NCBI GenBank assembly: GCA_030447525.1 | Contig: JAUJOR010000010.1 | Coordinates: 141,113 to 205,112 of the forward strand | Length of the DNA stretch: 64,000 bases | From: Chloroflexota bacterium | GTDB lineage: Bacteria; Chloroflexota; UBA11872; UBA12225 | Reading direction: 5' to 3' | In this document: in pieces, positions 7,444 through 36,141 of the stretch | Layout of the letters: the number at the start of each line of letters is the position of its first letter | Numbering within the stretch: the stretch's first letter is position 1 | Program-made: the position numbers and the translations under genes | The notes under the pieces: model-generated | What the model saw: only the letters and a program-made list of their open reading frames with translations | Told to the model about the DNA's origin: nothing | The model's database searches: none

Positions 7444-7485
7444 CATCACCTGCTTCGATAGACAGCGGCCGGCGCACGGAAGCAG

Positions 7486-8106: not shown

Positions 8107-8218
8107 TCGTCGGCGGCGCGTCCAGTGGGGTGACTAAGGAACCACTGGGCCGGCGCCCCTTGGACGGGCACGTACTCTTCTTGGCTCGGCGTGCCTGGAC
8201 GCGTATCCGGCTTGCGTG

Positions 8219-10760: not shown

Positions 10761-10802
10761 GCCACCTGTCCCTCTCGCCCCGATCCAGGGCCGATGGCAA
10801 GT

Positions 10803-11141
10803 CTAGCGACTGTTCTGGGCTGCACGTGCGCCACCGCCTGCATCCCGGCCCCGCGCGGTCTCCTCCTCGTCCAGGATCTGCAGCAAGAGGTCAGACTCCC
10901 CTGCCACCACGCCAGGGACGAACGCCCCCAGCAGACCGAGCTGGGCCGCCAGGTAGGCCGTTCCCAGGGCCACGGCGACCACCGCCAGCAGGAACAACTC
11001 CCGGCTGCGTAAGGCCGCCACGCGCTCGAAGAGCCAGGGGAAGAGGCGCAGCCCCACTGGTCCCAGGCTCGCCAGCAGGGCGGCTGCGACGCATGCGGCG
11101 CCGGAGGCCACGGCCAGGTTGACCAGGAGGGTGCCGCTCAC
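10803..11141 (-). pseudogene. Internal fragment of a CPA2-type cation:proton antiporter (KefB/KefC-like)
   Basis: SRELFLLAVVAVALGTAYLAAQLGLLGAFVPGVVAGESDL matches the central TM region of Kef-type antiporters. Only about 110 aa are present, with no N- or C-terminus. Confidence 0.45.
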
Positions 11142-11753
11142 GCGCCGCTCGTGGCAGTCGTATTGGTAGTGGTATTGATGCTCCTCTTAATGTCAAGCGG
11201 CACAGCCGGCCGGTGCTGGGGGGAGGGAGGGCCCGGATGGGCCGGAGGCGCTCGGCGCGGCGGGCGCGGTTTCGCAGGCAGCCGCGTCCGGCCACGCGGG
11301 GTGAGCCCGTGCGGCGGGGGCGCCTTGCTGCTGGGCATCGCCGGCCGGCGGTCAGCGGGGCGGCGGGCTGTCCGGCGCCGGCGGCGGCGGCGTGCTCCTC
11401 CTTGTGGGTGTCTACCCCGCCGACGATCCCTACGTCCGGCACGTCGGGCACGGTTTCGGGCACCGTCTGCACCGGTCGGCCCGTTACTCCGCTCATGGCG
11501 CTGCCTTCCTCCCTCACGGGACTGCGAACGGCACCCTAGCGTCGCGACGGGCGGACAGGACACTGACGGGGCCGCCCCGCGCGGGGACGGCGGCCACGAC
11601 GGGCGGGTGCACGACACACCAGCGGGCCGCCGGCCGGGGCGGACGGATCAACACGAGGACACGCAGTGGTCGGCCCGGTTTTGGGGTCACACCCCGGCGC
11701 AGCGGCCCACTAGAATCATCACTGACGCAATACCACCAGGGAGGGTGATACGT

Positions 11754-12296
11754 ATGGCAGCACAGAGCTTGGGTCCGCGGCTCACCGCCATTGGACAGAG
11801 GCTGGGGAATGATCTGGGCCAATGGCTGGGGCGCGCGGACTACCGCTGGGGGGTGCGCAACAGGCAACTCGCGGCGGGCGCCGCCGGCGTGGGCATAGCC
11901 AGCATGGCCGCCACGTCGCTTCTGCAGCTGGGGGTGGTGAAGCACCTCCCCGATCCACCGCTGCCGGGATTCGACTCCGACAAGGTGAACCTCTCGCCAC
12001 ACGCGTTCCCGTTCGGCATGCCAGACGGGCCGCTGGCTCTGGGTGCGTACATCACGGCGCTGGCGCTGGCTGCCTGGGGGCCCGCAGACCGGGCGAAGAC
12101 CCAGCCGTGGGTGCCGCTGGCGGCCGGGGGCCAGGCCGCGTTGCTGGCGGCGGTGTCCGGGTACTACTTCTATTCGATGCCGGCGAAAGAGCATGCCTGG
12201 TGCGGGTACTGCATTGTGGCCGCTCTGGCCAGTCTCGCCATCTTCGGGTTGGTCCTGCCGGAGGCGCGGCTGGCGGCCAGGGAGGTGCGTGGCTAG
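11754..12296 (+). CDS. Membrane protein with a CxxC motif in a TM helix, resembling the vitamin K epoxide reductase family (tentative)
   Basis: The ATG at 11754 is preceded by GGAGGGTGA. The protein is 180 aa with 4-5 hydrophobic helices and has KEHAWCGYC. The long Arg-rich upstream extension in the ORF track was ignored. Confidence 0.4.
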   Translation: MAAQSLGPRLTAIGQRLGNDLGQWLGRADYRWGVRNRQLAAGAAGVGIASMAATSLLQLGVVKHLPDPPLPGFDSDKVNLSPHAFPFGMPDGPLALGAYITALALAAWGPADRAKTQPWVPLAAGGQAALLAAVSGYYFYSMPAKEHAWCGYCIVAALASLAIFGLVLPEARLAAREVRG

Positions 12297-13149: not shown

Positions 13150-13543
13150 TGCACAGAGGAATCGCGATCGCGTGGCAGGTCAGGGGATGCAAAGAGTGCC
13201 GCATGTCCCAACGATCGGCGCATGACCACCTTCAGTCCTACCTACCAGCAAGCACAGCCTGCGACGGCCCGCGGCGGACGCACGAGCGGCCACCCCTCAG
13301 CGCCCGCCCGCGGGCGCCTTCATGTTCGCTACGGGAATCGAGTGCAGCTGTCCGCCTCTGCCCAAGACAAGAACGGCGAACGCCTCCGCCACGACGGCCG
13401 GTGGCAGCGCCGTATCCGTCTTTCAGAACGTACGTGAACCGAGAACAGAGTTTCGCCCCTGCCGACGTGGGGCACCTGGAAGCGAGTGCCGGTGACGTCA
13501 CAGCGGCGTCACAGTGCGCACGCAACGTGCCCGAGGGCGTGCG

Positions 13544-14120
13544 ATGCAAGTCGCCGGCGCCGACTCTCCCCATGCGCTGGGCGTGCTCCCCACGCCGCCC
13601 GCTCCCTTCGCCGCGCTCAGGCGCTTCCCGCGATGCGCGCTCATCGTGCGAGCGGAGTCGCCCGCCCGCAGCGTGTACGTCGTTGGGTCGGGATACGTCC
13701 GCGTCTACTTCCTAGCGGAAACGGGTGAGGAGACCTCGCTGGCCTTGCTCGGTCCCGGCCAGGTCTTCGGCATCGCGGCGCTGCTGGGGTTCCCCACCTG
13801 CCGCGTCTTCGCCGAGGCGCTGACCGCGATCGAGTTGTGGGAGCTGCCGGTGGAGCGGCTGCGCCGGGCGCTGCCGGAGGACACGGCCGTCCTCGGTCTC
13901 CTGGTGGGCGCCCTCGGACGCCGGCTCGCCGCGGCAGAGGCGCTGCTGCGCGACGTCGCGCTGCTGCCCGTGTCCGCCCGCGTATCGGGCCTGCTGGGGC
14001 GCCTCTCCGCCTCTCTGGGCGGCGAGCCGCCGCGGCTGACCAACGAGTACCTCGCGCGCTCGTCGGCGCGCGCCAGACGGTGAGCCGCGCCGGCGCGCGC
14101 CGTTCGCACGGCCGGCGCCA
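13544..14120 (+). pseudogene. Crp/Fnr-family regulator with cNMP-binding domain, frameshifted in the C-terminal HTH
   Basis: The cNMP domain is in frame (YVRVYFLAETGEETSLALLGPGQVFG). The HTH starts RLTNEYLAR and then continues in another frame (LVGARQTVSRA). Confidence 0.5.
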
Positions 14121-14156: not shown

Positions 14157-14879
14157 ATGGATGGAGGTTCAGGAAGTACGGCCGCTGGCGACCCGGGTGA
14201 GGAGAAGACGTGGTACCTGCGCCGGGTAGACGTCTTCCGCGCCTGTCCGACGACGAGATCGAGCAGGCTCGGAGCGATGCTGGAGGCTCGGGTCTTCTCT
14301 GCGGGCGAGCCTGCTGGTCGCCCTCGACACGCCGCGGCGGCAGGTGTACGTCGTGAAGACCGGGGCCGTTCGGCTGTTCCACCGCGGACCGGACGGGCGG
14401 GTGATCACGGCCGGCACGGTGGAGCGCGGCGGTCTGCTCGGCGTCTCATCGCTCTTCAACGGCACTGCGCAGGACGGCTTCCTCCTGGCCGAGGCGGCCA
14501 GCGAGGTCGTGGCGTGCTTGGGCGACGGCTGGAGCTTCCTGCGCGCTATCACCCGGTGGCCGTCCGTGCTGCTCACGCTGGCCGAGCAGGCTGGGCGCGC
14601 AGGCTCGTGCAGGTGGAGCAGCAGATCGGCGCGGTGGCAGCTGCGGACGCGCGTACCCGCCTCGCCCGCGCGCTGTACCACCTGGCCCGCGATGCGGGCG
14701 AGAGCCTGCCGGGGGACGGACGGCTTATCCGGCTGACGCCGACGCACGCCACGCTGGCCGCGCACATCGGCGCCAGCCGGGAGACGGTCACCCGCGCCCT
14801 TGCGGCGCTCGAGGCGGGCGGGGCTACATCCGGCGCCATGGGCGCCGCACGGTGCTGCCCAACCCCGCGCGGCTGGTGA
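14157..14879 (+). pseudogene. Second Crp/Fnr-family regulator, split over at least two frames
   Basis: The cNMP domain (MYVVKTGAVRLFHRGPDGRVITAGTVERGGLLG) is in frame 14344. The HTH (TRLARALYHLARDAGE...RLTPTHATLAAHIGASRETVTRAL) is in frame 14157. Confidence 0.5.
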
Positions 14880-14919
14880 CTGACTTCGGTCTCCCCGGCG
14901 GCGACTGACTACATCCAGG

Positions 14920-16618
14920 GGGCCTGTTGCCAAAGTCGGGTATGGTGGTCAGGAGGAGCACGGTGCGGGGTACGCGCGCCCCGTGCACGCGACGGGAACG
15001 GCCGCTGGGCCGGACCGGAGCTCGAACCGGGGACAGGCCCGCTTGAGAAGGGGGAGGGGCCCAACGCCGCACCCCCCATGGCCGGGCTGGGGGCGCGCCG
15101 TTGGGCCAGCTTCTTGACGTCGTACGCGATGGCGCGCCCAGCGCCTGGATCAGCACCTTGTCTCGCCCCCGACACTGCGCCCGCCGCAGCCCGTGACGGT
15201 CCTTCAGTTCGGCGTTGGCCGTCTCGACCCAGTACGCGCGCGGCGCCGGCTGCGCTTGGCGGGTGGCGTGCGGAGATAGGCGACGACTCGGTCGCGCAGT
15301 CCCCCATCGTCCGGGCGCACGAGGGTGCGGGCCGCCGGGCCGCAGCAGCACTGCGCCTTGACCGGGCACGCCCCGCAGACCTTCGGCCGCCTGCGGTAGA
15401 TCAGGCCACCGGCCGCCCCGGCAGTGCGCGAGGAGCCCTGGCGGGTGAGGAGCGTTCGGTGGGACACCGATAGCGATTAGCGATCGGCGGCGAACTCGTA
15501 CACGAAGCGGTCGGCAGAGTAGTCACCCCGGTCGCTCATGGTGCTGTGGGGCGGGATGCTCGCCCGGATGCCCTGCTGCTCCAGCGCCACGTAGTTGGCG
15601 TAGGTCCCGTACTTGGTATCCGCCACCACTTCGGCCACCGTACGCCCGGTCGTGCCTCGATGCTCCTTGAGCAGCCGGTCCAGCAGGTGCTCGTCGGCAA
15701 CCTCGCCCGGAGTCACGTCCAGCGCGGTGATGAGACGCGCCCGCCCGCCGTCCACGCCGACGTGCGCCTTGTAATAGAAGGCGTAGGGAGACCCCCTCGC
15801 GCTTGACCAGCCCCGCGTCGGGATCGGTGCGACTGGTCACCAAGGCGTTCACCGGCCCCCTGGTCCCCGTTGGGCACGTCCTCCGGACCGGCCACGTGCA
15901 GCGACGGGCGCGCCGCGCGCGTTCGCCGTGAGGCCACCGGCCGAGTCCGGCGCCGGCTGCTCCCCCTCGCCGGGAGGGCCGGCGGCGGCGTGGGATCGGA
16001 GACGGGATTCTCCTGCCACACCGTCGCGACGTACCCGGCCGCGCTCGGCAGCTGAGTGAGCAGCGCCCGCGCGCCGGCCGACCCAAGACTGGCATTGGCC
16101 TTGACCAGCGTGCTGTCCACGTAGAGGACGTCGCCCCGCACCAGGCCGGCCCGCTCGCGTTTCCACCACCTCGGTGAAAAGCCGCCTGGTACACGGGCAG
16201 GCCGAAGCGCGCCCGCGCCTTGGACAGCATCGAGTGGTCCGGCGCGTCTCGTCGAGGTCGTACCCCAAGAACCAGCGGAAGGCCAGGTGCAGGCGCGCCT
16301 CCTCGGCCAGCCGCCGCTCCGACGTGATGCCGTAGAGGTACCCGAGCAGCATCAGCTTGAACAGCACCACCGGATCGACCCCCGGCCGGCCGGTGTGGCT
16401 GTAGAACCGCGCCGTCAGCCGCCGCACAAAGCTGAGGTCGAGCGCCGCCCCGATGCGCCGCAGCAAGTGGTCGCTCGGGACCTGCGCTTCTAGCGAGAAC
16501 TCGTAGAAGCGCTTCGGCGTGAATTCCTTACGGCCCAACATCGTGCCCCACCTCGAACAGGGAGCCACCATCCTACTCAGACCTCGGCCGGTCCGGCCAG
16601 AGTTTGGCAACAGGCCCC
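14920..16618 (-). mobile_element. IS1182-family (IS5 superfamily) insertion sequence, copy A, with the transposase reading on the minus strand and frameshifted
   Basis: The 1699-bp element is bounded by terminal inverted repeats GGGGCCTGTTGCCAAA. Transposase pieces are FYEFSLEAQVPSDHLLRRI...GYLYGITSERRLAEEARLHLAFRWFLGYDLDE, VLYVDSTLVKANASL, DTKYGTYANYVALEQQGIRASIPP and the C-terminal CPVKAQCC...ETANAELKDRHGLRRA, spread over three or more frames. Confidence 0.8.
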
Positions 16619-16887
16619 AGGGAGGTGCTGCAAGACACCGCCGGGAGCGTCCGCCTCAGCTTGACCTCGCCCGCTGGAGTCGCGGGGTGGGAACATGTCT
16701 GGCGGAATGCGCCCGAGCACACCGTGTGCCGCCGTTTTGGAATGGCGGGAGCCATTGGGGGGGATGCGTATTTCCGATGCAGACGCGGTTGTGACGAATG
16801 TGACGGAATCGGTGCCGGCAACGGCCTACGATGGCTTCAACCCCAGGGGACTCACTCTTCCCGTGCCCTGGGGCAGAGGGGGGCATC

Positions 16888-19281
16888 ATGAGCAAGCGGA
16901 ACACCATGGCGACGGCGGGCAAGACTCTCCCCAGGCTTCTGGCGGCCGCAGGGCTGACGTTCGTGCTGGTCATCCCGCCGGCCGTGCTGGCGGCCGGCAG
17001 CGCCGCCCCTGAGGCCGCGCCTGGGGCCGCTACCGGGGCGTCGGCAAGCGCGCAACTCGCGTCTTCGCCGGGATTCCCGCTGGTGCAGTTGCCGCCCGGG
17101 TTCATGATCGAGAAGGTGGTGGACGGTCTGACCTACACCACGGGCATGACGTGGGACGATCAGGGACGCATGTACGTGCTGGAGGCGGGCGGCCAGTTCG
17201 TGGAAGAGGAGCCGCCCTCGCGCATCCTCCGCATCGAGCCCGGCCGCGCCACCGAGGTAGCGGATTTGGCCGCTATGGGCGTCGCTGATTCCGCGGTGGG
17301 CATCACCTGGCACAACGGCGCCTTCCTGGTGACGCACCGCGACAGCCGAGACCGCTCCGGCGCCGTCTCTCGTGTGACGCTGGACGGTCAGCGCACGCAG
17401 CTCTTCAGCGGGATCATGGACAGCCAGTCCGAGCACCAGATCAACGACGTCAAGATCGGCCCGGACGGCCGCGCCTACGTTGCTGTGGGACCGGCTAGCA
17501 ATGCGGGCGTGGTCGGCATCGACCTGGCGCCGTTCACGATGCGCAGCCCGGGCGTGCACCACCACCCGTGCCAGGAGATCGTGCTCACCGGGCGCAACTA
17601 CCGCACGCCGGACTTCCGCTCCAGGGAGGTGCAGGGCGACCTTGCTAACACGGGCGCCTTCGTGCCCTTCGGCACGCCGACCGAGCCGGGGCAGGTGATC
17701 AAGGGCACCAACAAGTGCGGCGGCGCCATCCTGGTGTTTGACCCGGCCAGTCCGGCCAGTGCCGAGGCCACCCTGCGCCCCTACGCGCACGGCTTCCGCA
17801 ACGTCATCGGCGTGGCCTGGACGACGCGGGGTGAGATGTACGCTGGAGTCAACGGCTATGACATCCGCGGCTCGCGCTCCGTCAGGGATGAGTGGGATGC
17901 AACCTACCGTGTCCAGGAGGGGGTGTGGTACGGCTGGCCGGACTTCTCGGCAGCGCTGGAGCCGGTGACCGAGCGTAAGTTCGAGGTGCCGGACGCGAAC
18001 CAGGCACCGGTTTTCATGCGGGGCGTGGCGCAGGGCAAGGACCTGGGGTTCGTCATCGACCACGCGGCGAGCGGCCTGATGCCACCCGATCGTTCGCTGG
18101 TGGCCGGGCTGCACCTGTGGAACTCCTCGCCGTCCATGCTTGACGTGGCGCCGGCGTCCTGGGGCGACATGGCCGGGCAGTTGTTCGTCGCTGAGTGGGG
18201 CGACCTGGCGCCGCCCACCAATCCGCTTGCCGGTAGCCCCTCCGGCTACCAGATCACGCGCATCGACCCCGCCTCCAAGCGTGCGATGCCCTTCGCCCGC
18301 AATGCCAAGCTCGGGCCGGCCTCGGCGCAGGGCGCGCCGGGAATGGGGCTCGAGCGGCCGTTCGACGTGAAGTTCGGGCCCGACGGCGCGATGTACATCT
18401 CTGACTACGGTGTGGCGCGCATCAACCCGGCGCGCACGGCGGAGGGCAAGCCGCCCTACGAGTTCCCGGTAGGGACGGGCGCCATCTGGAAGATCAGCCG
18501 CACCGCCGCGGGGCCGGGCGAGTTCCCGCACGCCATTGACGGGCGCACGATCTTCGACGAGCCCATGCCGACCCAGGTCCAGTTCCGCGCGGTGTACGGT
18601 GGGCGCACGCTCGAGGAGTGGGCGGCCCAGCACACCGCCGAGCTCCGCGCCGCCCGGAGTGATCGGGGAAGCGCCACCTACCGCGTCACCATCGAGAACC
18701 TCACCCAGGGCCAGCCCTTCTCGCCGCCGGTACTGGCGGCCCACGGCGGCGGCTTCGACATGTTCGAGGTGGGCCGCGCCGCCTCGGACGAGCTCGCCGC
18801 CATCGCCCAGGACGGTGAGCCGGGGCCGATGTTCCTCGCCGCCAGGGCCTCCGGGAGCGTCACCGAGGCGGTGAATGCCGGCGCGGCGGTGCCGCCCAAG
18901 GGGATGCTGAGGCGGGAGATCCGGGCGAACCACGGCGACCGGCTGTCCATCGCCTCGATGCTCGTCTGCACCAACGACGGGTTCTGGGCCCTGGACGCCG
19001 TGGCCCTCCCGGCGCAGGGAGCGCAGTCCTTCATGGCCACCGGGTACGACGCCGGACGCGAGCAGAACACCGAGCAGAGCGAGCACATCGTCGATACGTG
19101 CAGCATCCCACGGCCCCTGCCGGGCGACAACGACGGCAACATGAACCGGCCCGTGGCATCCAACCCGGTGGAGCCTATCCGGGACCATCCCGGCGTCAAG
19201 GGCACGGGCGAGCTCGATCCCGGCTTCCATGGATTCGCCAATCCTGTGGCCAGGATCACCGTCGAGCGCGTCGGCGCATAA
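16888..19281 (+). CDS. Secreted two-domain protein: SGL/sorbosone-dehydrogenase-like six-bladed beta-propeller fused to a C-terminal spondin-N (reeler-like) domain
   Basis: The ATG at 16888 is preceded by AGAGGGGGG. The N-terminus has a signal peptide (LLAAAGLTFVLVIPPAVLAAGSAAPEA). Propeller motifs include DVKFGPDGAMYISDYG. The C-terminus (ATYRVTIENLTQGQPFSPPVLAAHGGGFDMFEVGRAASDELAAIAQDGEP...MLVCTNDGFWALD) matches spondin_N. Confidence 0.6.
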   Translation: MSKRNTMATAGKTLPRLLAAAGLTFVLVIPPAVLAAGSAAPEAAPGAATGASASAQLASSPGFPLVQLPPGFMIEKVVDGLTYTTGMTWDDQGRMYVLEAGGQFVEEEPPSRILRIEPGRATEVADLAAMGVADSAVGITWHNGAFLVTHRDSRDRSGAVSRVTLDGQRTQLFSGIMDSQSEHQINDVKIGPDGRAYVAVGPASNAGVVGIDLAPFTMRSPGVHHHPCQEIVLTGRNYRTPDFRSREVQGDLANTGAFVPFGTPTEPGQVIKGTNKCGGAILVFDPASPASAEATLRPYAHGFRNVIGVAWTTRGEMYAGVNGYDIRGSRSVRDEWDATYRVQEGVWYGWPDFSAALEPVTERKFEVPDANQAPVFMRGVAQGKDLGFVIDHAASGLMPPDRSLVAGLHLWNSSPSMLDVAPASWGDMAGQLFVAEWGDLAPPTNPLAGSPSGYQITRIDPASKRAMPFARNAKLGPASAQGAPGMGLERPFDVKFGPDGAMYISDYGVARINPARTAEGKPPYEFPVGTGAIWKISRTAAGPGEFPHAIDGRTIFDEPMPTQVQFRAVYGGRTLEEWAAQHTAELRAARSDRGSATYRVTIENLTQGQPFSPPVLAAHGGGFDMFEVGRAASDELAAIAQDGEPGPMFLAARASGSVTEAVNAGAAVPPKGMLRREIRANHGDRLSIASMLVCTNDGFWALDAVALPAQGAQSFMATGYDAGREQNTEQSEHIVDTCSIPRPLPGDNDGNMNRPVASNPVEPIRDHPGVKGTGELDPGFHGFANPVARITVERVGA

Positions 19282-19386: not shown

Positions 19387-20640
19387 ATGGCCCCACGGAA
19401 CGGTGAACACCGGGGTAGCCGGCATGGGGCCTTCATGTTCGCTACGGGAATCGAGTGCAGCTACCCCGTCATTGCGAAGGATGGAAGGTCGCACCGGCAG
19501 GATTCGCTGGAGAAGGGCGGCCACTACCGGTATTGGCGCGAGGACCTGCGCCTCGTCCGCGAGGAGCTGGGGCTCACCTACCTGCGCTACGGCACGCCGC
19601 TGCACCGCGTGTTCATTGGTCCCGGCCGCTACGACTGGGCCTTCACAGACGACGTACTTGCAGAGATGGAGCGGCTGGGCATCGTGCCCATCGTGGACCT
19701 GTGCCACTTCGGGCTGCCGGACTGGCTGGGCAACAGCTTCCAGAACCCGGACGTGCCCCGCCACCTGGCGGAGTACGCCCGCGCGTTTGCCCGGCGGTTT
19801 CCCCGGGTGCACCTCTACACACCGGTGAACGAGATCTACGTCTGCGCCAAGTTCTCCGGCCTGACCGGCTGGTGGAACGAGCGCCTGGCGAGCGAGCGCG
19901 GCTTCGTCACCGCGCTCAAGCACCTGTGCCTCGCCTCCCTGGACATGATGGAGCAGATCCTGGCGGTGCGGCCGGACGCCGTCTTCGTCCAGAGCGAATC
20001 CAGCGAGCAGTTCCACCGCTCCTGCCCCTCACCGGAAGCCGGCGAGCTCACCGCCTTCGAGAACGAGCGGCGCTTCCTGGCGCTGGACGCGCTCTATGCG
20101 CGGCCGCTCAGCGCCCGCATGGAGCGCCACGTCCTGGAACACGGCGTCACGCGCGCCGACCTGGACCGCTTCATGAACAACACGCTGGGCGAGCGCTGCA
20201 TCATGGGCAACGACTACTACGCGACCAACGAGCACATGGTCATGAGCGACCTGTCCATCCGCGCGGCCGGGGAGGTCTTCGGCTGGTACCTGGTGACACG
20301 CCAGTACTACGCGCGCTACCGCCGGCCGGTGATGCACACCGAGACCAACACCCTCAACTGCAGCACGGACCCATCGGACTGGCTGTGGAAGCAGTGGCAC
20401 AACGTGCAGCACATGCGCAGCGAGGGCGTGCCGGTCCTGGGCTTCACCTGGTACTCGCTGACGGACCAGGTGGACTGGGACAGCGCCCTGCGCGAGGACA
20501 ACGGCACCGTCAACGAGATCGGGTTATTCGACCTGGACCGCAAGATCCGGCCCGTCGGGCGCGAGTACCGCGAGCTGGTGCGCCTCTTCGGCGCGGTTCC
20601 GCTTGTGCCCAAAGCGCCATTCCTGGGAGCAGGTTTGTGA
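19387..20640 (+). CDS. GH1-like (family 1 glycosylhydrolase-related) protein of the FMFATGIE subgroup
   Basis: The family N-terminus AFMFATGIECSYP is present with a TIM-barrel-like remainder. An alternative start is the ATG at 19435. The stop TGA overlaps the next gene's GTG start (GTGA). Confidence 0.55.
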   Translation: MAPRNGEHRGSRHGAFMFATGIECSYPVIAKDGRSHRQDSLEKGGHYRYWREDLRLVREELGLTYLRYGTPLHRVFIGPGRYDWAFTDDVLAEMERLGIVPIVDLCHFGLPDWLGNSFQNPDVPRHLAEYARAFARRFPRVHLYTPVNEIYVCAKFSGLTGWWNERLASERGFVTALKHLCLASLDMMEQILAVRPDAVFVQSESSEQFHRSCPSPEAGELTAFENERRFLALDALYARPLSARMERHVLEHGVTRADLDRFMNNTLGERCIMGNDYYATNEHMVMSDLSIRAAGEVFGWYLVTRQYYARYRRPVMHTETNTLNCSTDPSDWLWKQWHNVQHMRSEGVPVLGFTWYSLTDQVDWDSALREDNGTVNEIGLFDLDRKIRPVGREYRELVRLFGAVPLVPKAPFLGAGL

Positions 20641-22055
20641 CCGTAAGCGCAGTGCAGGGGTCGCGCGTGGCAATCGCCCATACCGTGGAGAAGCACCGCT
20701 CGCCCGAGCGCGTCGAGAGGCTGGTGAAGGAGGCGCTGCAGCACCTCGGCGGCATTTCTGCCTTCGTCGCACCCGGAGACACCGTGTTCATCAAGCCTAA
20801 CCAGACGGTCTTCTACTCCGCTGAGGAGGGCTGCACCACCGATCCGCTGGTGGTGGGGGCGCTCATCCGGCTCTGCAAGCGCGCCGGCGCGGGCCGGGTG
20901 CAGGTGGGCGAGTCCAGCGGCGACTTCTTCGATTCCATCAAGAACATGCACATCACCGGCATGGCGCAGGTGGCGGAGAAGCACGGCGCGGAGCTCCTGG
21001 ACCTGGGGAGCGACGACGTGCCCAACCGCACCGTCCCCATCCCGCGCGGCGCCGTCATCAAGGCCGTGCCCCTTCCCACGCCTCTGCTGGACGCGGACGT
21101 GATCATTGACGTCCCCAAGGCCAAGAACCACCACATCGAGCCCATCTCCGGCGCGCTCAAGAACTGGGTGGGGGCCGTCAACCGCAGGTGGCGCGCCCAC
21201 AACCACGGCGACGAGGACATGACCGAGCGGTTCATGGACATCATGACCGTCTCCCGGCCGCACCTGTGCGTGGTGGACGCCCTGATCTGCGGCGAGGGGG
21301 ACGGCCCCATCGCCAACCAGCCCCACTGGTGCGGCGCCATCCTCGCCTCGGACGATCCCGTGGCGACGGACGTGGCCATCGCCCGCCTGATGGGGCATGA
21401 CTGGACGAAGCTGCGCTTCGCTGAGGAGGCCGAGAAGCGCGGGCTGGGCACCCGCACCCACATCGAGTACCTCGGCGTGCCACTGGACTCCATCGCCTTC
21501 GAAGCGTGGGCGGGGCACCACGGTTACGGCTACCTGCCGGTGAATTTCTTGGTCGGCGACGGGGTCACGCTGGAGGGTACCGTCGGCCACGTCAAGAGCG
21601 CGCTGGACAGCCTGCTGCGGCGCGGCGAACTGGCCGAGGTGATCTGGCTCAAGGGGACGCCGACCCTGATGATCGGGCGGATCGAGGACCCGCACTTCGA
21701 GGAGCACCTCAAGGAGGGGCCGTACGTCGTCTTCGACGACGCCGCGCTGCCTAGGTACAAGGAAGACCCGCGCGTCACGTTCATCCCCGGCCACCCCGTG
21801 CTGCGCGAGGGCATGCCGGGGCTGATGAAAGGACTGGGGGTGAAGGTGCCCGGCCAGACGGTGATGCAGTGGCAGCAACTCCAGCGCTGGGGCATGCACC
21901 TGCTGGAGTACGGCTCGGGGAAGCAGATCGCGCGGGCGGCCGGAAAGACGGCCGTGGGTGTGGGGCTGGGGGCGGCCGGGCTGGCGGCGGCGGTGATTGG
22001 CGCCAGAAGGCTGTCTGGATTGGCCGGAACCGCCGGAGGCGTCAATCGTGGATGA
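20637..22055 (+). CDS. DUF362 domain protein
   Basis: The GTG start overlaps the upstream stop. VFIKPNQTVF...DPLVVGALIRLCKRAGAGRVQVGESS matches the DUF362 core. The C-terminus is hydrophobic and Gly/Ala-rich. The gene lies inside a spurious 866-aa ORF-track frame. Confidence 0.55.
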   Translation: MTVSAVQGSRVAIAHTVEKHRSPERVERLVKEALQHLGGISAFVAPGDTVFIKPNQTVFYSAEEGCTTDPLVVGALIRLCKRAGAGRVQVGESSGDFFDSIKNMHITGMAQVAEKHGAELLDLGSDDVPNRTVPIPRGAVIKAVPLPTPLLDADVIIDVPKAKNHHIEPISGALKNWVGAVNRRWRAHNHGDEDMTERFMDIMTVSRPHLCVVDALICGEGDGPIANQPHWCGAILASDDPVATDVAIARLMGHDWTKLRFAEEAEKRGLGTRTHIEYLGVPLDSIAFEAWAGHHGYGYLPVNFLVGDGVTLEGTVGHVKSALDSLLRRGELAEVIWLKGTPTLMIGRIEDPHFEEHLKEGPYVVFDDAALPRYKEDPRVTFIPGHPVLREGMPGLMKGLGVKVPGQTVMQWQQLQRWGMHLLEYGSGKQIARAAGKTAVGVGLGAAGLAAAVIGARRLSGLAGTAGGVNRG

Positions 22056-22608
22056 GACAGGCGACGGCTCGGCGGTGGAGCAGGTGCGGCGCTTCCTCTT
22101 CTCGGGCTACGCGCACGAGCACCGGCCGCTGGGCGCCTACGCTACTCTAGTGGCGCTCTTCAACGCCCTCTTCGCTGGGTTTCTGCTCACCACCAAAGCG
22201 GCTGACCGGCGCATCCCGGAGCGCGTGTCCGCAGGAGATATCGTGCTGCTGGGGGTCGCCACCCACAAAGCGAGTCGCCTGCTGTCGCGGGACTGGGTGA
22301 CCAGCTTTCTGCGCGCGCCGTTCACGCGCTTCGAGGGCAAGGGCGAGCTTCCCGCGGAGGTGAGCGAGGAGCCGCGCGGCCGGGGCTTCCGGTACGCCAT
22401 GGGCGAGCTGCTGACCTGCCCTTATTGCGTGGGGCAGTGGCTGGCGGCGTTCTTTGCGTACGGGCTGGTATTCAAGCCGCCGGCAACGCGGCTGGTGGGC
22501 AGCGTGTTCGCCATACTCACCATTGCCGACTTCTTGCACCTGGCGTACGTCATCGCGGAAGAGCAGACCGAGCCGGACACGTCCACGCCTTCGGAAGCCA
22601 TACCATGA
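22051..22608 (+). CDS. DUF1360 family membrane protein
   Basis: The GTG start overlaps the upstream stop. LLTCPYCVGQWLAAFFAYGL is the DUF1360 signature, with two or three TM segments. Confidence 0.55.
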   Translation, partial: DETGDGSAVEQVRRFLFSGYAHEHRPLGAYATLVALFNALFAGFLLTTKAADRRIPERVSAGDIVLLGVATHKASRLLSRDWVTSFLRAPFTRFEGKGELPAEVSEEPRGRGFRYAMGELLTCPYCVGQWLAAFFAYGLVFKPPATRLVGSVFAILTIADFLHLAYVIAEEQTEPDTSTPSEAIP

Positions 22609-23864
22609 GGGACGATTGCTTCGGGGGAAGCACCGCCACACAGCGTCCATGCGCCCACAGCACAGGAGTATCGCGCCCATGGCACCCGCCGCCTCCCCCA
22701 ACTCCCCCCAATTCACTCGCTTCTCCTGCGTCGCGCACCTTCCCCCGGCGCACCGCCCTTGGCTCCCTGGGCGCCCTCGCCGCGCTGGGTAGCGCCGCGT
22801 GCGGCCAGGCTTCGCAGGCGCCAGCCGGCACGCGGCGCCCATTCGAGGGTCGATCGCTGACCATCTTCGTCTACACCGGCATCTGGGAGAAGTGGTACCG
22901 CGAGCTCTTCGTGCCCGCGTTCGAGGCGGAAACCGGTGCCAAAGTCATCGTTGATGCCGGCTGGTGGGACGCGCTGCCCAAGCTCAAGATCGCTCCGCCG
23001 GACCAGCCACCGTTCGATCTGATGCTGACCGACCCAACGCAGGGGTTCCCCGCCATCCGAGATGGGCTGGCCGCCAAGCTCAACCTGAGCAACATTCCCA
23101 ACGTGAAGCGCTTCGCACCCAAGGTGCTCGACGCGTCAGTCTTCAAGGATGGCTGGGGCGTGCCGCACATCTCCTCCCCCATGACGCTGGCCTGGGATAA
23201 GGAAGCGCTTCCCGCTGGACTCAAGGGCTGGGGTGACCTGCTGGAAGCGCCGGCGCGGGGCAATTTCACGGCCTACGGCTCCTACTACATGGGACCCTTC
23301 ACCTTTGCGGCCATCAAGGCAGCGCGGGAAGGCAAGGCGGGCCAGGCCCGCCAGATGGTGGAGAACGACCTGGATGGGGTGCTCAATTACGCCAAGGAGC
23401 ACCGTGACGCGGTGAAGTACTGGTGGTCGGCGACGACCGACGCAGTGCAGGCATTCCTGAACAAGAACGTCGTGGCCGGATCGCTGCACGGGAACGGGCT
23501 GCTTGCCCCGCTGCGCGACAAGAAGCCGATCGACTTCGTCATCCCGGAGCGCGATCGTGCCTACGTGCAGCTCTTCTGGCTGGTGCCCAAGGGATCCAGG
23601 AACAAGGACGTGGCCGAAACGGCGCTGAACCACATTACCGGCAGCACCTTCCAGTGGAACCTGGCCAGCAAGAGCGGCGAGCTGGCGACGCACCACCCGG
23701 AGGCTGCGGAGCAGATCGGGGCGCAGGACAAGCTGTGGGGCCGCGTCTACCCGTCCGCCGCGCCCGACTGGGCCAACCTCAGCTACTACCCCTACGAGTT
23801 CTACGACAAGAACGACAAGAAGATCGCGGACTTTTGGAACCGGGAGGTTCTGCGCAAGGGATGA
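22605..23864 (+). CDS. ABC transporter substrate-binding protein (PotD / iron(III)-type SBP fold)
   Basis: The ATG at 22605 overlaps the upstream stop (ATGA). It has a Tat/lipoprotein-like [20 protein letters not shown] and SBP-like domains. Confidence 0.6.
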
Positions 23865-24564
23865 TGCCGCCGGCCGTCGCGCTGGCTGAGGTCTCCAGGC
23901 GCTACGCCCCCGGCGCGCCGCCTGCGCTGGACCACCTCACGCTTGAAGCGCGCGAGGGCGAGTTCCTCTTTCTCCTGGGACCGAGCGGCTCCGGCAAGAC
24001 GACGGCGCTGCGCCTGATCGGCGGGTACGAGCGCCCCGATTGTGGCGAAGTGCGGCTGGGCGGCGTGCTGGCCAACCCCACGCCATCGGCCTGGCGCACG
24101 CCATGTGGACGCTGCCGCTCGCCTTTCTCGCGCTGCGCGCCGCGTTGGCCACGGTGGACCGGCGCCTGGAGGAGGCGGCGCGTGGACTGGGCGCGCATCC
24201 GGCGCGCGCCTTCATGTTGGTCACGCTGCCCCGTCTCTGGCCCGCCATCGAGGCCGCGGCGTTCCTGTGCGCCGTGATGTCGCTGAACGAGCTGCCCACG
24301 GCGCTCTTCCTGTCCACTCCCGCGGGGCGCACACTGCCCACGCTGATCTGGCCGCAGCTGCGCTACAACCTCACGCCGCTCGTCGACGCCGCGTCTGGGC
24401 TGCTCCTGCTCCTCACCGTGGGCGGTCTGGGCCTGTCCGGGCTGCTCGGCTCGCGCCGGTGGCGCCGCGGGTCGGACGAGACACCGGCTGCCCGCGCTGC
24501 CCGTGCGGCGCCAAACGAGACTGACCATGGATCGCTCGCCGTTCTCGTTTCGCGCCCTGCTTGA
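23861..24564 (+). pseudogene. Deletion remnant: ABC ATPase N-terminus (Walker A) joined to the C-terminus of an ABC permease
   Basis: [68 protein letters not shown] is followed, after a frame change near 24070, by the permease tail [56 protein letters not shown]. Confidence 0.6.
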
Positions 24565-27571: not shown

Positions 27572-29274
27572 GGGGCCTGTTGCCAAACTCTGGCCGGACC
27601 GGCCGAGGTCTGAGTAGGATGGTGGCTCCCTGTTCGAGGTGGGGCACGATGTTGGGCCGTAAGGAATTCACGCCGAAGCGCTTCTACGAGTTCTCGCTAG
27701 AAGCGCAGGTCCCGAGCGACCACTTGCTGCGCGCATCGGGGCGCGCTCGACCTCAGCTTTGTGCGGGCGGCTGACGGCGCGGTTCTACAGCCACACCGGC
27801 CGGCCGGGGGTCGATCCGGTGGTGCTGTTCAAGCTGATGCTGCTCGGGTACCTCTACGGCATCACGTCGGAGCGGCGGCTGGCCGAGGAGGCGCGCCTGC
27901 ACCTGGCCTTCCGCTGGTTCTTGGGGTACGACCTCGACGAGACGCCGCCGGACCACTCGATGCTGTCCAAGGCGCGGGCGCGCTTCGGCCTGCCCGTGTA
28001 CCAGGCGGCTTTCACCGAGGTGGTGCGCAGTGCGAGCGGGCCGGCCTGGTGCGGGGCGACGTCCTCTACGTGGACAGCACGCTGGTCAAGGCCAATGCCA
28101 GTCTTGGGTCGGCCGGCGCGCGGGCGCTGCTCACTCAGCTGCCGAGCGCGGCCGGGTACGTCGCGACGGTGTGGCAGGAGAATCCCGTCTCCGATCCCAC
28201 GCCGCCAGCGGCCCTCCCGGCGAGGGGGAGCAGCCGGCGCCGGACTCGGCCGGTGGCCTCACGGCGGCGCGCGCGCGCGCCCGTCGCTGCACGTGGCCGG
28301 TCCGGAGGACGTGCCCAACGGGGACCAGGGGCCGGTGAACGCCTTGGTGACCAGTCGCACCGATCCCGACGCGGGGCTGGTCAAGCGCGAGGGGGGTCCC
28401 CTACGCCTTCTATTACAAGGCGCACGTCGGCGTGGACGGCGGGCGGGCGCGTCTCATCACCGCGCTGGACGTGACTCCGGGCGAGGTTGCCGACGAGCAC
28501 CTGCTGGACCGGCTGCTCAAGGAGCATCGAGGCACGACCGGGCGTACGGTGGCCGAAGTGGTGGCGGATACCAAGTACGGGACCTACGCCAACTACGTGG
28601 CGCTGGAGCAGCAGGGCATCCGGGCGAGCATCCCGCCCCACAGCACCATGAGCGACCGGGGTGACTACTCTGCCGACCGCTTCGTGTACGAGTTCGCCGC
28701 CGATCGCTAATCGCTATCGGTGTCCCACCGGGCGTGGCACCCTCACCCGCCAGGGCCTCCTCGCGCACTGCCGGGGCGGCCGGTGGCCTGATCTACCGCG
28801 GGCGGCCGAAGGTCTGCGGGGCGTGCCCGGTCAAGGCGCAGTGCTGCGGCCCGGCGGCCGCCCGCACCCTCGTGCGCCCGGACGATGGGGGACTGCGCGA
28901 CCGAGTCGTCGCCTATCTCCGCACGCCACCCGCCAAGCGCAGCCGGCGCGCCGCGCGTACTGGGTCGAGACGGCCAACGCCGAACTGAATGGACCGTCAC
29001 GGGCTGCGGCGGCGCAGTGTCGGGGGCGAGACAAGGTGCTGATCCAGGCGCTGGGCGCGCCATCGCGTACGACGTCAAGAAGCTGGCCCAACGGCGCGCC
29101 CCCAGCCCGGCCATGGGGGTGCGCGTTGGGCCCCTCCCCCTTCTCAAGCGGGCCTGTCCCCGGTTCGAGCCTCCGGTCCCGGCCCAGCGGGCCGTTCCCG
29201 TCGCGTGCACGGGGCGCGCGTACCCCGCACCGTGCTCCTCCTGACCACCATACCCGACTTTGGCAACAGGCCCC
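27572..29274 (+). mobile_element. IS1182-family insertion sequence, copy B (plus orientation), transposase frameshifted
   Basis: The 1703-bp element has the same terminal repeats and internal sequence as copy A but in inverted orientation. Its indels differ from copy A (for example DLDETPPDHSMLSKARARFG reads through here). Confidence 0.8.
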
Positions 29275-29425
29275 AAGGAAGCACTTAGTGGGTCACGTTG
29301 CATTTAACTGGCGATGACCTGACCTGGTGAGCAAACCATTTATCTGCGGGTGGTGATTATATACTTGACGCAGTAGGAAACCTGTGAGACAATGTACTGG
29401 AACAAGAGTCCTAAGGTTGCCTACG

Positions 29426-30413
29426 ATGCCGAAGGCGAAGCCGGTTGATCCGCTCGAACTGACCACCAGCAGCATCGCGAAGTTCTTCTCTACGGAAGAG
29501 GACGCGTGGCTGATGGTGGAGCGGCTGCGCTGGCCTACGGGCACGGTCTGCCCGCACTGCGGCGTGATCGGCAATGCGACCTACCTCACGCCGAAGTCCG
29601 GCTATCGGACGACGCGGGCGGGCAACACGTCCTACCGTCGCGTATGGCAGTGCCGTGAGCGGGAATGCGGGCAACAGTTCAGCGTGCTCGTGAACACGGT
29701 GATGGAAGACACCAAGATCCCGGTGAGCAAGTGGCTGCTGGCGATGCACATGCTGTCCGCCGGCAAGAACGGCGTCTCCGCCCACGAGCTGCACCGGACG
29801 CTCGGCATCACCTACAAGAGCGCGTGGTTCATGGCCCACCGCATCCGCTACGCGATGGCGGAACCGGCGCGCGTCCTGTTGGGCGGCGTCGTAGAGGCCG
29901 ACGAGACCTACGTCGGCGGGCGCATCAAGCGGGCGCACGGTACCCCTAAGTCAAACAAGACTCCCGTCGTGACGCTGGTGAGCCGCGACGGCGAGGCGCG
30001 CTCCCAAGTCATGCACGCCGTGACGGGCGCGAACATCGGGCGGGTGCTCACGGAGCACGTTGCGCCGAGTGCCACGCTGATGACCGATGAGGCTTCCTTA
30101 TAGAGCCGGGTCGCGGGTTCGCCGGCCACGAGACGGTCAACCACAGCGCCGACGAGTATGTACGCGGGAGCGCCTACACCAACACCGTCGAAGGGTTCTT
30201 CAGCCAGCTGAAGCGCAGCATCGACGGGACGCACCACCACGTCAGCGAGTGGCACCTACACCGCTACTTGGCCGAATTTGACTTCCGCTACAATGCGCGC
30301 AAGATCAAGGACGGCGAGCGCACGGAACGTGCCTTTCAACAGGTGGCTGGAAAGCGGTTGATGTACCGGGACTCGTTGGGCGCCGCCGGATCGCCGCTGT
30401 CACGGTAGCGGCG
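29426..30413 (+). pseudogene. IS1595/ISXO2-like transposase with a single frameshift near 30100
   Basis: The N-terminal Zn-ribbon is WPTGTVCPHCGV...WQCRERECGQQF, followed by VEADETYVGG. After LMTDEASL there is a stop, and the protein continues in the +2 frame as FAGHETVNHSADEYVRGSAYTNTVEGFFSQLKRSIDGTHHHVSEWHLHRYLAEFDFRYNARK. Confidence 0.7.
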
Positions 30414-31173: not shown

Positions 31174-31411
31174 TGCCTGGACGAAGATCGCACCGGGCAA
31201 GAACCTCAAGAGCGCGCTACCCACCGACGTCGCCCGGCCGGACCCGGGCGCGGGGTGGCCCAGGGCCGCCGAGGTCAGCGCCGCGTCAATCCCATCATGC
31301 AGAATCTCTTCGATAAGATAAGAAGGAGATCTCGGTGCCGGATGCCCTCAAGCAGGCCCAGGACGCGAAGGTGGGCATCCTCGGCCCGGCGGCGGGCAAG
31401 TAGCGGGGGAG
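31114..31411 (+). pseudogene. C-terminal remnant of a sugar ABC SBP gene truncated by the IS insertions
   Basis: SBP-tail motifs in two frames (TLQAALALIIPARKSQFDAWTKIAPGKNLKSALP, then VPDALKQAQDAKVGILGPAAGK with a stop). There is no 5' part. Confidence 0.4.
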
Positions 31412-33103
31412 ATGCGCCTGCTGATAACGGGTGGTCAGAGCATGCTGGCGGGGGCCCTGGCCGACACGCTCGCCGGGGAGCACGGTGTACGACTCGTCGC
31501 TACCGAACACGCCGCCCTCGACGTCGCGCCCGGCGACCATGAGCTGCTGCGCGGCGATCTACGGGACTCCGGCTTCGCCCAGCGCGCGGTGGAGGGGGTC
31601 GACGCCATTCTGCACCTGGCGCCGCTGTGGTCGGGGCTCCCGCCGGACACAGCGGACGAGGTGCGGATCGATTGCGCCACGCGCGGGACGTACGTCCTGC
31701 TCAACGCCGCCGTCGCGGCCGGGGTGCGGCGAGTGGTGCTCGCCAGCACGCTCGACCTCTTCGCCGCCTACCCCAGCGACTGGTACGTGGGCGAGTCGTG
31801 GCGGCCCCGCCCCACAACCGATGTGACGCAGCTGGCGGCCTCGCTGGCGGAGGCCTCGGCCCGCGAGATCAGCCGGGTCGAGCCGCTGCACACCGTCTGC
31901 CTGCGCCTCGGGGAGGTCGTCGACGACCAGGACGTGGCAGGCACGCCGTACGACCCGCGGTGGCTGCACGTGGCCGACGCGGTACAGGCCTTCCGGCGCG
32001 CGCTGGCGTTCGGACTCGGCTCACGACAGTTCGCCACCACCGGTCCGCCGCTGCACGGCTGGTGGGTCTTCCACATCCCCGGCGGCGGCGCGCGGACGCA
32101 GGTGCCGCTGGCCTGGGCGCGCCACGAGCTGTTCGGGTACGCGCCCCAGCACACCTTCGCCTCTTCTCAAGACCAGATCGCGCCGCAGAACACCGCCCGC
32201 TCCTGGGGCGCCGCGGGCGCTCCTGACTCCTCGGCCACGCCGCCTCACGTGACGCGAGGTGTACCTCGCAAGACGACCGCGTCCCGTCCTATCCGCCGTG
32301 TCGTGGTCTTCGGCGCGGGCGGGCCGCTGGCCGCGGCCACGACGCCGCTGCTGACCGCTTCATACACGCTGCGGGCGACCGACCTGCGGTCGCTGCACGC
32401 CATCGCCGCTGACCCCAGGACGGCGGCGCCCGGGCGGCCGGTGCCGCCACTCCTGGCGCCACCGCACGAGATGCGCCAGGTGGACGTGACCGATCCGGCG
32501 CAGGTCATGGCGGCGTGCGCCGGGATGGACGCCATCGTGAACTGCTCGGTGGTGCGCCCCCACCCGGTGAACGCCTTTCTGGTCAACACCATCGGCGCGT
32601 ACAACATCGCCCGCGCCGCCGTGGCGCACGACATCCGGCGGGTGGTGCAGACGGGGCCGCAGCAGGTGACGATGGACCGCCCCGGCGGGTACTGGTGGGA
32701 CTTCGACGTGCCAGACGACGCGCCGGCGCGCCCGGGATCGCTGCTCTACAGCCACAGCAAGTACCTGGGGCAGGAGATCCTACGGATCTTCGCCGAGAAC
32801 CACGGCCTGGAGGTCCCGGTGCTGCTCTTCTCGCGCTTCGTAGATCCCGAGGTGAACCGTCCCAACATTGACGGCATGTTCCCGATGACGGTGTCGTGGC
32901 GGGACGCCGCCCTCGCCATCCGCTGCGCCTTGGAGGTGCCATCGCTGCCGGCGCCGTGCGAGGTGTTCCACATCCTGGCCGATCTACTGCACGGGAAGTA
33001 CCGCAACGAGAAGGCCAAACGGCTGCTGGGCTGGCAGCCCCGGGACACGCTGGAGCACCTCTGGGGCCGCCGTCACACCCTGGAAGAAGAAGCGGCCCGC
33101 TGA
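31412..33103 (+). CDS. Tandem fusion of two NAD-dependent epimerase/dehydratase (extended SDR) domains
   Basis: 563 aa. Domain 1 (MRLLITGGQSMLAGALADTL...) has a Rossmann fold. Domain 2 starts at about aa 290 (RRVVVFGAGGPLAAA...) and has the YxxxK catalytic motif YSHSKYLGQE. The start is preceded by GGGGGAG. Confidence 0.55.
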   Translation: MRLLITGGQSMLAGALADTLAGEHGVRLVATEHAALDVAPGDHELLRGDLRDSGFAQRAVEGVDAILHLAPLWSGLPPDTADEVRIDCATRGTYVLLNAAVAAGVRRVVLASTLDLFAAYPSDWYVGESWRPRPTTDVTQLAASLAEASAREISRVEPLHTVCLRLGEVVDDQDVAGTPYDPRWLHVADAVQAFRRALAFGLGSRQFATTGPPLHGWWVFHIPGGGARTQVPLAWARHELFGYAPQHTFASSQDQIAPQNTARSWGAAGAPDSSATPPHVTRGVPRKTTASRPIRRVVVFGAGGPLAAATTPLLTASYTLRATDLRSLHAIAADPRTAAPGRPVPPLLAPPHEMRQVDVTDPAQVMAACAGMDAIVNCSVVRPHPVNAFLVNTIGAYNIARAAVAHDIRRVVQTGPQQVTMDRPGGYWWDFDVPDDAPARPGSLLYSHSKYLGQEILRIFAENHGLEVPVLLFSRFVDPEVNRPNIDGMFPMTVSWRDAALAIRCALEVPSLPAPCEVFHILADLLHGKYRNEKAKRLLGWQPRDTLEHLWGRRHTLEEEAAR

Positions 33104-33192
33104 CCACCTGGCGCAGCTCTCTGAGTCCCAGAGCGGGGAGGTGCGTATCCTAAGGGCCATCCAGCCGATGCGCTGCGTGGGGAGGAACCGAA

Positions 33193-34533: not shown

Positions 34534-34777
34534 CGCGCCGGGGTTTTTGGCCGGTGCCTGGATCGGCCGGTGCCTGGATCACTCAACGTCCCATCGGAAG
34601 GCCACGTCAGTGGCTGTCTTGAGCACCCCGGGCCACGATCTGTAGTACGCTCGAGCCGCTGTCCGCCCGGGCGCTGAAACGGGGAGACCGCGCCGCACGT
34701 GAGCGGCGGGCGACCGGCGCCGCTTGTGGCCGGCGCTGTCCGGGGGCACAATGCCTCAAGAGAGGGGCACCACATCC

Positions 34778-36115: not shown

Positions 36116-36141
36116 GGCCAAGCCGCGCGACCGCGTAGGAA

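Follow-up and report, generated by a model that had tools for sequence, protein, structure and literature searches.

Do four genes chained by overlapping stop and start codons form one functional unit? The question is raised by a run of open reading frames (ORFs) in the 64,000-nt window analyzed here, a stretch of contig JAUJOR010000010.1 from a Chloroflexota bacterium. All coordinates are positions in that window, and ORFs and junctions were read directly from its sequence. The genes encode a family 1 glycosylhydrolase-like (GH1-like) protein, a long-form DUF362 protein, a small DUF1360 membrane protein and a solute-binding protein (SBP). A preliminary description, made from the sequence alone, had read their tight coupling as a stoichiometric unit of four and as a candidate glycoside processing or sensing system. 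Our comparisons point to a smaller unit. Judged by distribution and sequence, the functional link between the GH1-like and DUF362 genes is genuine, and it is this conserved pair, not the four-gene module, that we take to be the unit. The best explanation, to which we assign a probability of roughly 0.55, is that the two enzymes would make up a membrane-tethered, two-step module that processes glycosides or sugars. The four genes are as follows.

19387–20640, + strand: GH1-like gene (PF00232, 47.5 bits), first member of the conserved pair
20637–22055, + strand: long-form DUF362 gene (PF04015, 160.5 bits), second member of the conserved pair
22048–22608, + strand: DUF1360 gene, encoding a small membrane protein (PF07098, 110.7 bits), occasional accessory of the pair
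22605–23864, + strand: solute-binding lipoprotein gene (SBP_bac_8; PF13416, 70.5 bits), outside the conserved module

The GH1-like/DUF362 pair across genomes

We scanned one genome per species with the DUF362 protein and added context look-ups of homologues, which gave 26 non-redundant related loci. Genes were counted in them by tblastn of the window proteins against all loci. These loci, only a few dozen in number, are mostly metagenome-assembled. A GH1-like gene lies no more than 10 kb from the long DUF362 gene in 18 of the 26, and no more than 1.6 kb from it in 16, with both gene orders represented. The paired loci belong to Acidobacteriota, Armatimonadota, Verrucomicrobiota and Kapaibacteria or lie on metagenome contigs without an assignment, and the GH1-like protein of the window is 51–89% identical to the DUF362-adjoining counterparts in the 18 loci. 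Of the eight loci that lack a GH1-like gene, five have at most about 1.5 kb of sequence on one side of DUF362. The DUF362 protein itself is 67–75% identical among Acidobacteriota, Armatimonadota, Chloroflexota, Verrucomicrobiota, Planctomycetota and Kapaibacteria and 87–90% identical in two desert-soil contigs; the closest named homologues of the window proteins are from Chloroflexota metagenome-assembled genomes (MAGs).

The two genes are also physically and evolutionarily coupled. A candidate start of the downstream gene overlaps the stop of the upstream gene by 1–10 nt in eight loci, in both orders. Pairwise identities of GH1-like proteins correlate with those of DUF362 proteins (Mantel r = 0.58, p ~5e-4, 17 loci). 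The strongest evidence is provided by natural fusions of the two, which were recovered when 1.84 billion cluster representatives were searched exhaustively with phmmer. P0515, 907 aa long, consists of a full GH1-like part (58% identical to that of the window) and a full DUF362 part (48% identical), in the same order as in the window and joined by a linker of about 65 residues. P0367 and P0365, with which P0515 shares a cluster, are partial GH1::DUF362 fusions. The C-terminal hydrophobic helix of DUF362 described below is absent from the fusions. We consider the link to be genuine on the combined strength of adjacency across phyla, overlaps whichever gene comes first, correlated divergence and natural fusions.

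The adjacency could also reflect co-regulation or co-transfer of independent stress-adaptation genes that are carried jointly on mobile stress or metal-resistance islands. The neighborhoods do contain stress and metal-resistance genes (copper resistance, M50 and M48 proteases, MsrB, thioredoxin reductase-like, GH15 trehalase-like, BON, Dps, GroEL and heavy-metal ATPases), and the block holding the window genes is flanked by insertion sequences (IS). Furthermore, GH1-like orthologs with more than 50% identity occur on megaplasmids of Deinococcus, Microvirga, Hymenobacter, Sphingobium and Phenylobacterium without a long DUF362 gene, which was absent from the plasmid collection searched. Contexts of the plasmid orthologs are variable, with no fixed operon, and the neighbors include short-chain dehydrogenases/reductases (SDRs) and stress or metal genes. 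However, fusion of the two enzymes in a single polypeptide, overlaps of 1–10 nt in both gene orders and correlated divergence would be hard to explain without a direct functional link, and for this reason we regard simple co-travel as unlikely.

Two details of the paired loci are worth recording. In a Blastocatellia MAG (L011), two GH1-like paralogues (7165–8343 and 10365–11546) stand on either side of a single DUF362 gene. In three Acidobacteriota loci (L001 and L002, 574–7432; L005, 4745–4927), copper-resistance genes lie directly upstream of the pair; they encode a multicopper oxidase, CopB, Csp, YHS, DUF305, a CsoR-type repressor and CusF.

Gene overlaps and the remains of an importer operon

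The four ORFs and their domain families, as first described, agree with the Pfam hits listed above. The junctions needed some correction. The GH1-like gene may start at ATG 19387 or ATG 19435 and stops at 20640; a 100%-identical 401-aa database protein (P0121) implies the second start. The GTG start of DUF362 at 20637 overlaps the TGA stop of the GH1-like gene at 20640 as GTGA, and the resulting 472-aa protein has the length of database member P0512. The in-frame start of DUF1360 is GTG 22048, which produces an 8-nt overlap with the DUF362 stop at 22053–22055 (GTGGATGA). ATG 22052 is out of frame for DUF1360, and an identical 186-aa database protein exists (P0241). Finally, the SBP start, ATG 22605, overlaps the DUF1360 stop, TGA 22606–22608, as ATGA. 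The SBP carries an RR...lipobox-like signal, and there is no alternative in-frame ATG, GTG or TTG ahead of this Tat/lipoprotein-like signal. The original claim that all four genes are chained by 4-nt overlaps was therefore right for GTGA at 20637 and ATGA at 22605; the middle overlap was correctly placed near 22051 but is 8 nt long.

The chain does not end with the SBP. It continues into two gene remnants.

23861–24277, + strand: truncated ATP-binding cassette (ABC) ATPase ORF (PF00005; residues 23–69 match profile positions 1–47 of 137)
24040–24564, + strand: C-terminal fragment of an ABC permease (PF00528; profile positions 60–174 of 184)

The ATPase ORF starts at ATG 23861, overlaps the SBP stop as ATGA and so makes a fifth gene in the chain. 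It keeps only the Walker-A third of the domain before the frame is lost, with a cut near 24070. The permease fragment is in a different frame from the ATPase remnant, and about 2 kb appears to have been deleted. By ORF and Pfam reading, no intact ATPase or permease genes of a binding-protein-dependent ABC importer are present beside the SBP.

Short stop/start overlaps are ordinary operon punctuation in a genome of high G+C content, here about 70% across the window. Since the chain runs on into a pseudogene through an ATGA overlap, overlaps alone are no mark of a functional or stoichiometric unit, and by themselves they are not beyond chance. Because the truncated ATPase and permease fragment follow the SBP with the same kind of overlap, the SBP belongs to a decayed ABC importer operon. 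It is a co-transcribed bystander or hitch-hiker, unrelated to the pair. The order of an SBP_bac_8 lipoprotein, an ABC ATPase and a permease is shared with PotD/YdcS-type importer operons, from which the window differs in that the ATPase and permeases are largely deleted; elsewhere the SBP has no tie to the enzyme pair.

We give almost no credence to the idea that all four genes form one stoichiometric machine for processing or sensing glycosides, with the SBP delivering or sensing the ligand. All four are indeed chained by overlapping stop and start codons in the window genome. The same DUF362-DUF1360-SBP-ABC-remnant arrangement is present in an independent short-read contig, L041, which is an independent assembly of the same sequence. 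Exact look-ups led to this short contig through the DUF1360 protein alone and returned no record for the DUF362 and GH1-like proteins of the window. However, SBP homologues were found in none of the 26 related loci, the SBP heads the importer remnants described above, and the closest relative of the window locus (L028) has a VKOR gene after DUF362 instead of DUF1360 and the SBP. No sensor kinase or other regulator is linked to the genes, and a sensing system is not supported. The suggested co-occurrence of GH1-like, DUF362 and DUF1360 genes fared better in part: it holds for the first two, and DUF1360 adjoins a pair gene in only two loci besides the window. Homologues of a propeller-spondin protein, an acyl-CoA synthetase and KAS were likewise found in 0 of the 26. 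None of the curated NCBIfam equivalogs fits any of the four proteins, and scans of the operon for promoters, terminators and Rfam families were negative.

The two enzymes and their proposed roles

The match of the GH1-like protein to PF00232 exceeds the cut-off of 22.6 bits and covers only profile positions 56–245. Scores against all NCBIfam GH1 equivalog models are far under their cut-offs. An alignment made to check the catalytic Glu pair found both residues kept. The acid/base is E133, preceded by N132 in the motif NEIY (401-aa numbering; E149 in the 417-aa form); it is invariant in 18 sequences and aligns with NEI of a Pantoea 6-phospho-beta-glucosidase and NEP of GH1 enzymes in the PDB. 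The nucleophile, E303 (E319 in the 417-aa form), lies in HTETN, is also invariant and aligns with the E of VENG in the canonical enzyme. Also invariant are an Arg and a His upstream and a W...D-W segment at the C-terminus. The protein had been assigned to a divergent FMFATGIE subgroup, and this assignment proved correct: in all family members the N-terminal glycone-binding Gln segment, WGxAxxxxQxEG, is deleted and FMFATGIE stands instead. We found no signal peptide or hydrophobic segment in the GH1-like protein.

Compared with canonical beta-glucosidases and 6-phospho-beta-glucosidases of the BglA/AscB type, the GH1-like protein has in common PF00232, the Arg, the His, the N-E acid/base, the nucleophile Glu and the alignable W...D-W segment. 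It differs in overall identity (about 24%), in the FMFATGIE replacement, in a nucleophile motif of TETN where the canonical one is (I/V)TENG, and in being fused or adjacent to DUF362 and to proteins with four transmembrane segments (4-TM). Two such 4-TM proteins recur, neither with a Pfam family. One is fused to the GH1-like N-terminus in Alphaproteobacteria such as Sabulicella and Methylocystis; in Acidobacteria and Kapaibacteria its gene lies directly before the GH1-like gene. A second, with weak similarity to DUF6789, is encoded downstream of the GH1-like gene both in Alphaproteobacteria and in Acidobacteria/Kapaibacteria. The 4-TM/GH1-like arrangements are found at 10001–11803 in L033 and 4431–6233 in L038, and in L011, L014, L017 and L022.

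The DUF362 protein matches PF04015 over the full profile (1–199) and well above the cut-off of 24 bits, with no other Pfam family reported. We compared its AlphaFold model (mean confidence score, pLDDT, 77) with the PDB using Foldseek. The top 19 matches were all LarA-type nickel-pincer racemases (E 7e-7 to 6e-4, probability ~1.0); these were the only significant fold matches, and they covered both domains. On this basis, DUF362 is predicted to have a LarA-like two-domain fold. Pfam places DUF362 in clan CL0471 together with the LarA superfamily (PMC11770544). In LarA, His174 is catalytic, Lys184 tethers the cofactor and His200 is a nickel ligand (PMC11770544). Nine residues of the window protein (K53, N55, T68, K163, H165, K175, H190, D214 and E220) are kept in 38–42 of 42 diverse DUF362 proteins of at least 25% identity. 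Among them, H165, K175 and H190 are conserved in 38–40 of the 42, and their spacing (H165-x9-K175-x14-H190; 10/15) is close to that of LarA H174-K184-H200 (10/16). We treat this parallel as a lead suggested by the alignment, not as a demonstrated equivalence. Differences from LarA include the want of any obvious counterpart of R75 or H108 (LarA1 numbering), an extra C-terminal helix with a membrane anchor, undetectable sequence similarity and the lack of nearby lar biosynthesis genes. To our knowledge, no glycosidase-like partner enzyme is known for LarA.

Ordinary DUF362 proteins are about 380–400 aa long and are often called iron-sulfur proteins. They share with the window protein the N-terminal PF04015 domain and the conserved K, N, T, K, H, K, H, D and E. 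Most of them also have a Cys4 motif (CxxC...GDC...PGCP) in the C-terminal domain. Cys occupies the columns of residues 312, 369 and 386 in 33 of 42 aligned proteins, where the window protein has L, A and H. In the GH1-linked clade, all four Cys (columns 312, 315, 369 and 386) are replaced, in the window protein by L, T, A and H. Separately, we noted that the Cys4 motif weakly resembles the Fe-S sites of NuoB/FrhG-type subunits, with E values that are not significant. The clade further differs from ordinary DUF362 proteins in its unusual conservation (the 67–75% between phyla given above), in its tie to GH1-like genes and in its C-terminus. All 25 aligned members finish with a long helix that includes a hydrophobic stretch, at residues 438–456 of the window protein, which we predict to be a membrane anchor. 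The protein had been described as soluble; the helix argues that it is not simply so.

Taken together, these features suggest how the pair might work. The GH1-like protein is a cytoplasmic TIM barrel with an intact retaining-glycosidase catalytic pair, and DUF362, of predicted LarA-type fold, would be held at the membrane by its C-terminal hydrophobic helix. The two may catalyze successive reactions of a single glycoside- or sugar-type substrate on the cytoplasmic side of the membrane. First, the GH1-like enzyme would cleave or transfer a beta-glycoside; DUF362 would then perform a LarA-like hydride- or proton-transfer isomerization or a redox step. Small CxxC membrane proteins, usually VKOR-like and in the window genome DUF1360, would be accessories that vary from locus to locus and connect the pair with the membrane and perhaps with thiol/quinone redox; other 4-TM proteins recur in the same way. 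The module may be part of stress-adaptation gene sets. In the window, the pair and DUF1360 share a single compact operon within a rearranged block that IS copies bracket.

A more specific version is one that we consider less likely. It makes the GH1-like protein and the Cys-less, anchored DUF362 an unrecognized bifunctional system that is widespread in soil bacteria. DUF362 would thereby be placed in a functional context for the first time, as a LarA-like hydride-transfer isomerase or oxidoreductase, possibly with a pincer cofactor or metal, that works at the membrane on a glycoside-derived substrate. Interchangeable CxxC partners (VKOR-like, DUF1360) would link it to quinone/thiol redox under stress.

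Several observations weigh against the two-step interpretation. The chemistry proposed for both enzymes is deduced solely from folds. For DUF362, the likeness to LarA is at the level of the fold alone, with TM scores of 0.28–0.40 and 9–15% identity, and neither phmmer nor two profiles reached any LarA chain in the PDB at E values up to 10. None of the lar cofactor-biosynthesis genes (larB, larC, larE) was found in the annotated neighborhoods, which were the only regions covered. The hydrophobic tail was called by a simple hydropathy scan, and the basic residues on both sides of it make the topology uncertain. Three Armatimonadota loci (L012, L018 and L026), each with 10 kb on both sides of DUF362, have no GH1-like gene within that distance. 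The megaplasmid GH1-like orthologs lack a long DUF362, so each enzyme can work without the other. The stress-island context, for its part, is an impression from about 10 neighborhoods, with no statistic.

Full-text literature searches found no functional studies of DUF362, of DUF1360 or of the GH1-like subgroup. DUF362 appeared there only as a LarA outgroup and DUF1360 only in domain lists; apparent mentions of DUF362 in the TmAT paper turned out to be DUF3623. Names of the PGAP type are generic (DUF362 domain-containing protein, family 1 glycosylhydrolase, DUF1360 domain-containing protein), and the GH1-like subgroup is annotated solely as "family 1 glycosylhydrolase". Each part belongs to a known superfamily, while apparently no description exists of the pairing, of the fused proteins or of the anchored DUF362 clade that lacks the Cys4 motif. 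DUF362 is a large family, with 6,849 cluster representatives at E ≤ 1e-3. A very highly conserved clade of it, tied so closely to a glycosidase-like enzyme with an intact catalytic pair that the two can be fused, offers an experimental handle on uncharacterized families. Further handles are the LarA-like His/Lys/His pattern and the loss of the usual Cys4 site in that same clade. If DUF362 does use a LarA-type cofactor on sugar-derived substrates, nickel-pincer or related chemistry would no longer be confined to 2-hydroxy-acid racemases. In soil Acidobacteriota, Armatimonadota and Chloroflexota, a part in envelope or stress physiology is suggested by the membrane CxxC partners that recur and by the stress- and metal-island contexts.

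CxxC membrane proteins and the rearranged window locus

DUF1360 scores far above the PF07098 cut-off of 21 bits. It had been described as a small membrane protein with a conserved CPYC motif, and this is borne out. Hydrophobic helices are predicted, and the motif lies at residues 124–127, with C124 invariant and C127 at least 90% conserved in 27–30 homologues. The motif, C-P-[FYW]-C across the family, stands at the start of a predicted helix. A structural model (pLDDT 87) consists of long helices and one beta hairpin. The two loci in which DUF1360 adjoins a pair gene outside the window are L027, a DUF362-anchored related locus where it is next to DUF362, and L030, a DUF1360-anchored contig where it is next to the GH1-like gene. 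Elsewhere it occurs with an SDR (L031), near dormancy-type regulators (L043) and in an operon at 6001–9841 of L042 together with an SDR, a VKOR-like gene and a GH15 trehalase-like gene. The L042 SDR shares 55% identity with the one encoded ahead of the GH1-like fusion in Sabulicella (L033), and the operon points to a wider guild of co-localized genes. We conclude that DUF1360 is an occasional accessory and that its fixed membership in the unit is weakly supported.

A VKOR-like gene is the commonest neighbor of the pair, being present in 10 of the 26 related loci and sometimes fused to SPW repeats. L028 has the order GH1-DUF362-VKOR, and its GH1-like and DUF362 proteins are 88–90% identical to those of the window. 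DUF1360 and the VKOR/DsbB-type thiol oxidoreductases are alike in having a CxxC, embedded in a transmembrane segment in the recurrent VKOR-like neighbor and at the start of a predicted helix in DUF1360, and DUF1360 is in VKOR's place relative to L028. The short VKOR-like neighbors differ from bacterial VKOR/DsbB in having neither the loop cysteine pair nor a fused thioredoxin domain. Two ideas about DUF1360 fared poorly. We rejected a VKOR/DsbB-like four-helix-bundle fold, for which there was no fold similarity, and the notion that DUF1360 replaces VKOR was weakened by L042, which has both in one operon.

An alternative account sees the system above all as a module for thiol/quinone redox at the membrane. 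CxxC proteins, with SDR, epimerase or cytochrome b561 partners, would then pass electrons between quinones and DUF362 as a cytoplasmic redox enzyme, and the GH1-like protein would be non-hydrolytic or regulatory. VKOR, DUF1360 (CPxC), cytochrome b561, SDR/epimerase, thioredoxin-reductase-like and MsrB genes are repeatedly found close to the pair or to the GH1-like gene, and the Cys4 motif of ordinary DUF362 resembles Fe-S sites. But that motif is lost in the window DUF362 clade, both catalytic Glu are kept in the GH1-like protein, and CxxC partners are missing from many loci. We find this account distinctly unlikely.

The window has a VKOR-like gene too, at some distance from the pair. It and the two IS copies are listed here.

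11742–12296, + strand: VKOR-like membrane protein gene with CGYC (PF07884, 61.2 bits)
14919–16618, − strand: left IS copy, inverted repeat of the right copy
27572–29274, + strand: right IS copy, inverted repeat of the left copy

The VKOR-like protein is 78% identical to the product of the L028 gene that directly follows DUF362, and by this similarity we take it to be the ortholog of the L028 VKOR. Here it is encoded 7 kb upstream of the module. A split Crp-type regulator, the left IS copy and a propeller-spondin gene lie in between. The two IS copies, each about 1.7 kb, are 97.6% identical over 1716 columns with 25 gap openings (blastn), and the transposase frames of both are broken into several ORFs. 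Inverted with respect to each other, they bracket a 10.9-kb block that holds the module, like a composite transposon. Because the VKOR ortholog is displaced by 7 kb and the IS copies bracket the block, we conclude that the locus is rearranged, with DUF1360 and the SBP in the place held by VKOR in L028.

Such a history could mean that the window arrangement is a rearrangement scar with little function left and that its tight coupling is incidental. The inverted IS copies around the block, the deleted ABC genes, the displaced VKOR ortholog and the split Crp-type regulator are all what a scar might leave behind. The three core ORFs, however, are full length, all family-invariant residues are present, and identity to the intact relative is 88–90%. 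For these genes, loss of function seems very improbable. A membrane-tethered two-enzyme pair remains our preferred interpretation of the locus.

Other genes around the module were noted in passing. The Crp/Fnr-type regulator is seemingly split into a cyclic nucleotide (cNMP)-binding ORF at 13496–14083 and a separate helix-turn-helix (HTH) ORF at 14157–14879, both on the + strand; a frameshift or an indel in the assembly could account for this. At 16831–19281 (+ strand), some 105 bp before the GH1-like gene, is the gene for an 816-aa secreted protein with an N-terminal beta-propeller (DUF7133/ScyE/GSDH-like) and a C-terminal spondin domain, which occurs in no related locus. Immediately after the right IS copy, at 29369–30408 (+ strand), lies an IS1595-family transposase (zinc ribbon and the start of the DDE domain) that apparently continues into a second ORF. 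Farther downstream, at 31322–37461 (+ strand), is a separate sugar-type cluster, which encodes a 593-aa protein with two Rossmann/epimerase-like halves, an FAD-dependent oxidoreductase (PF12831) and, in tandem, two SBP_bac_1 proteins.

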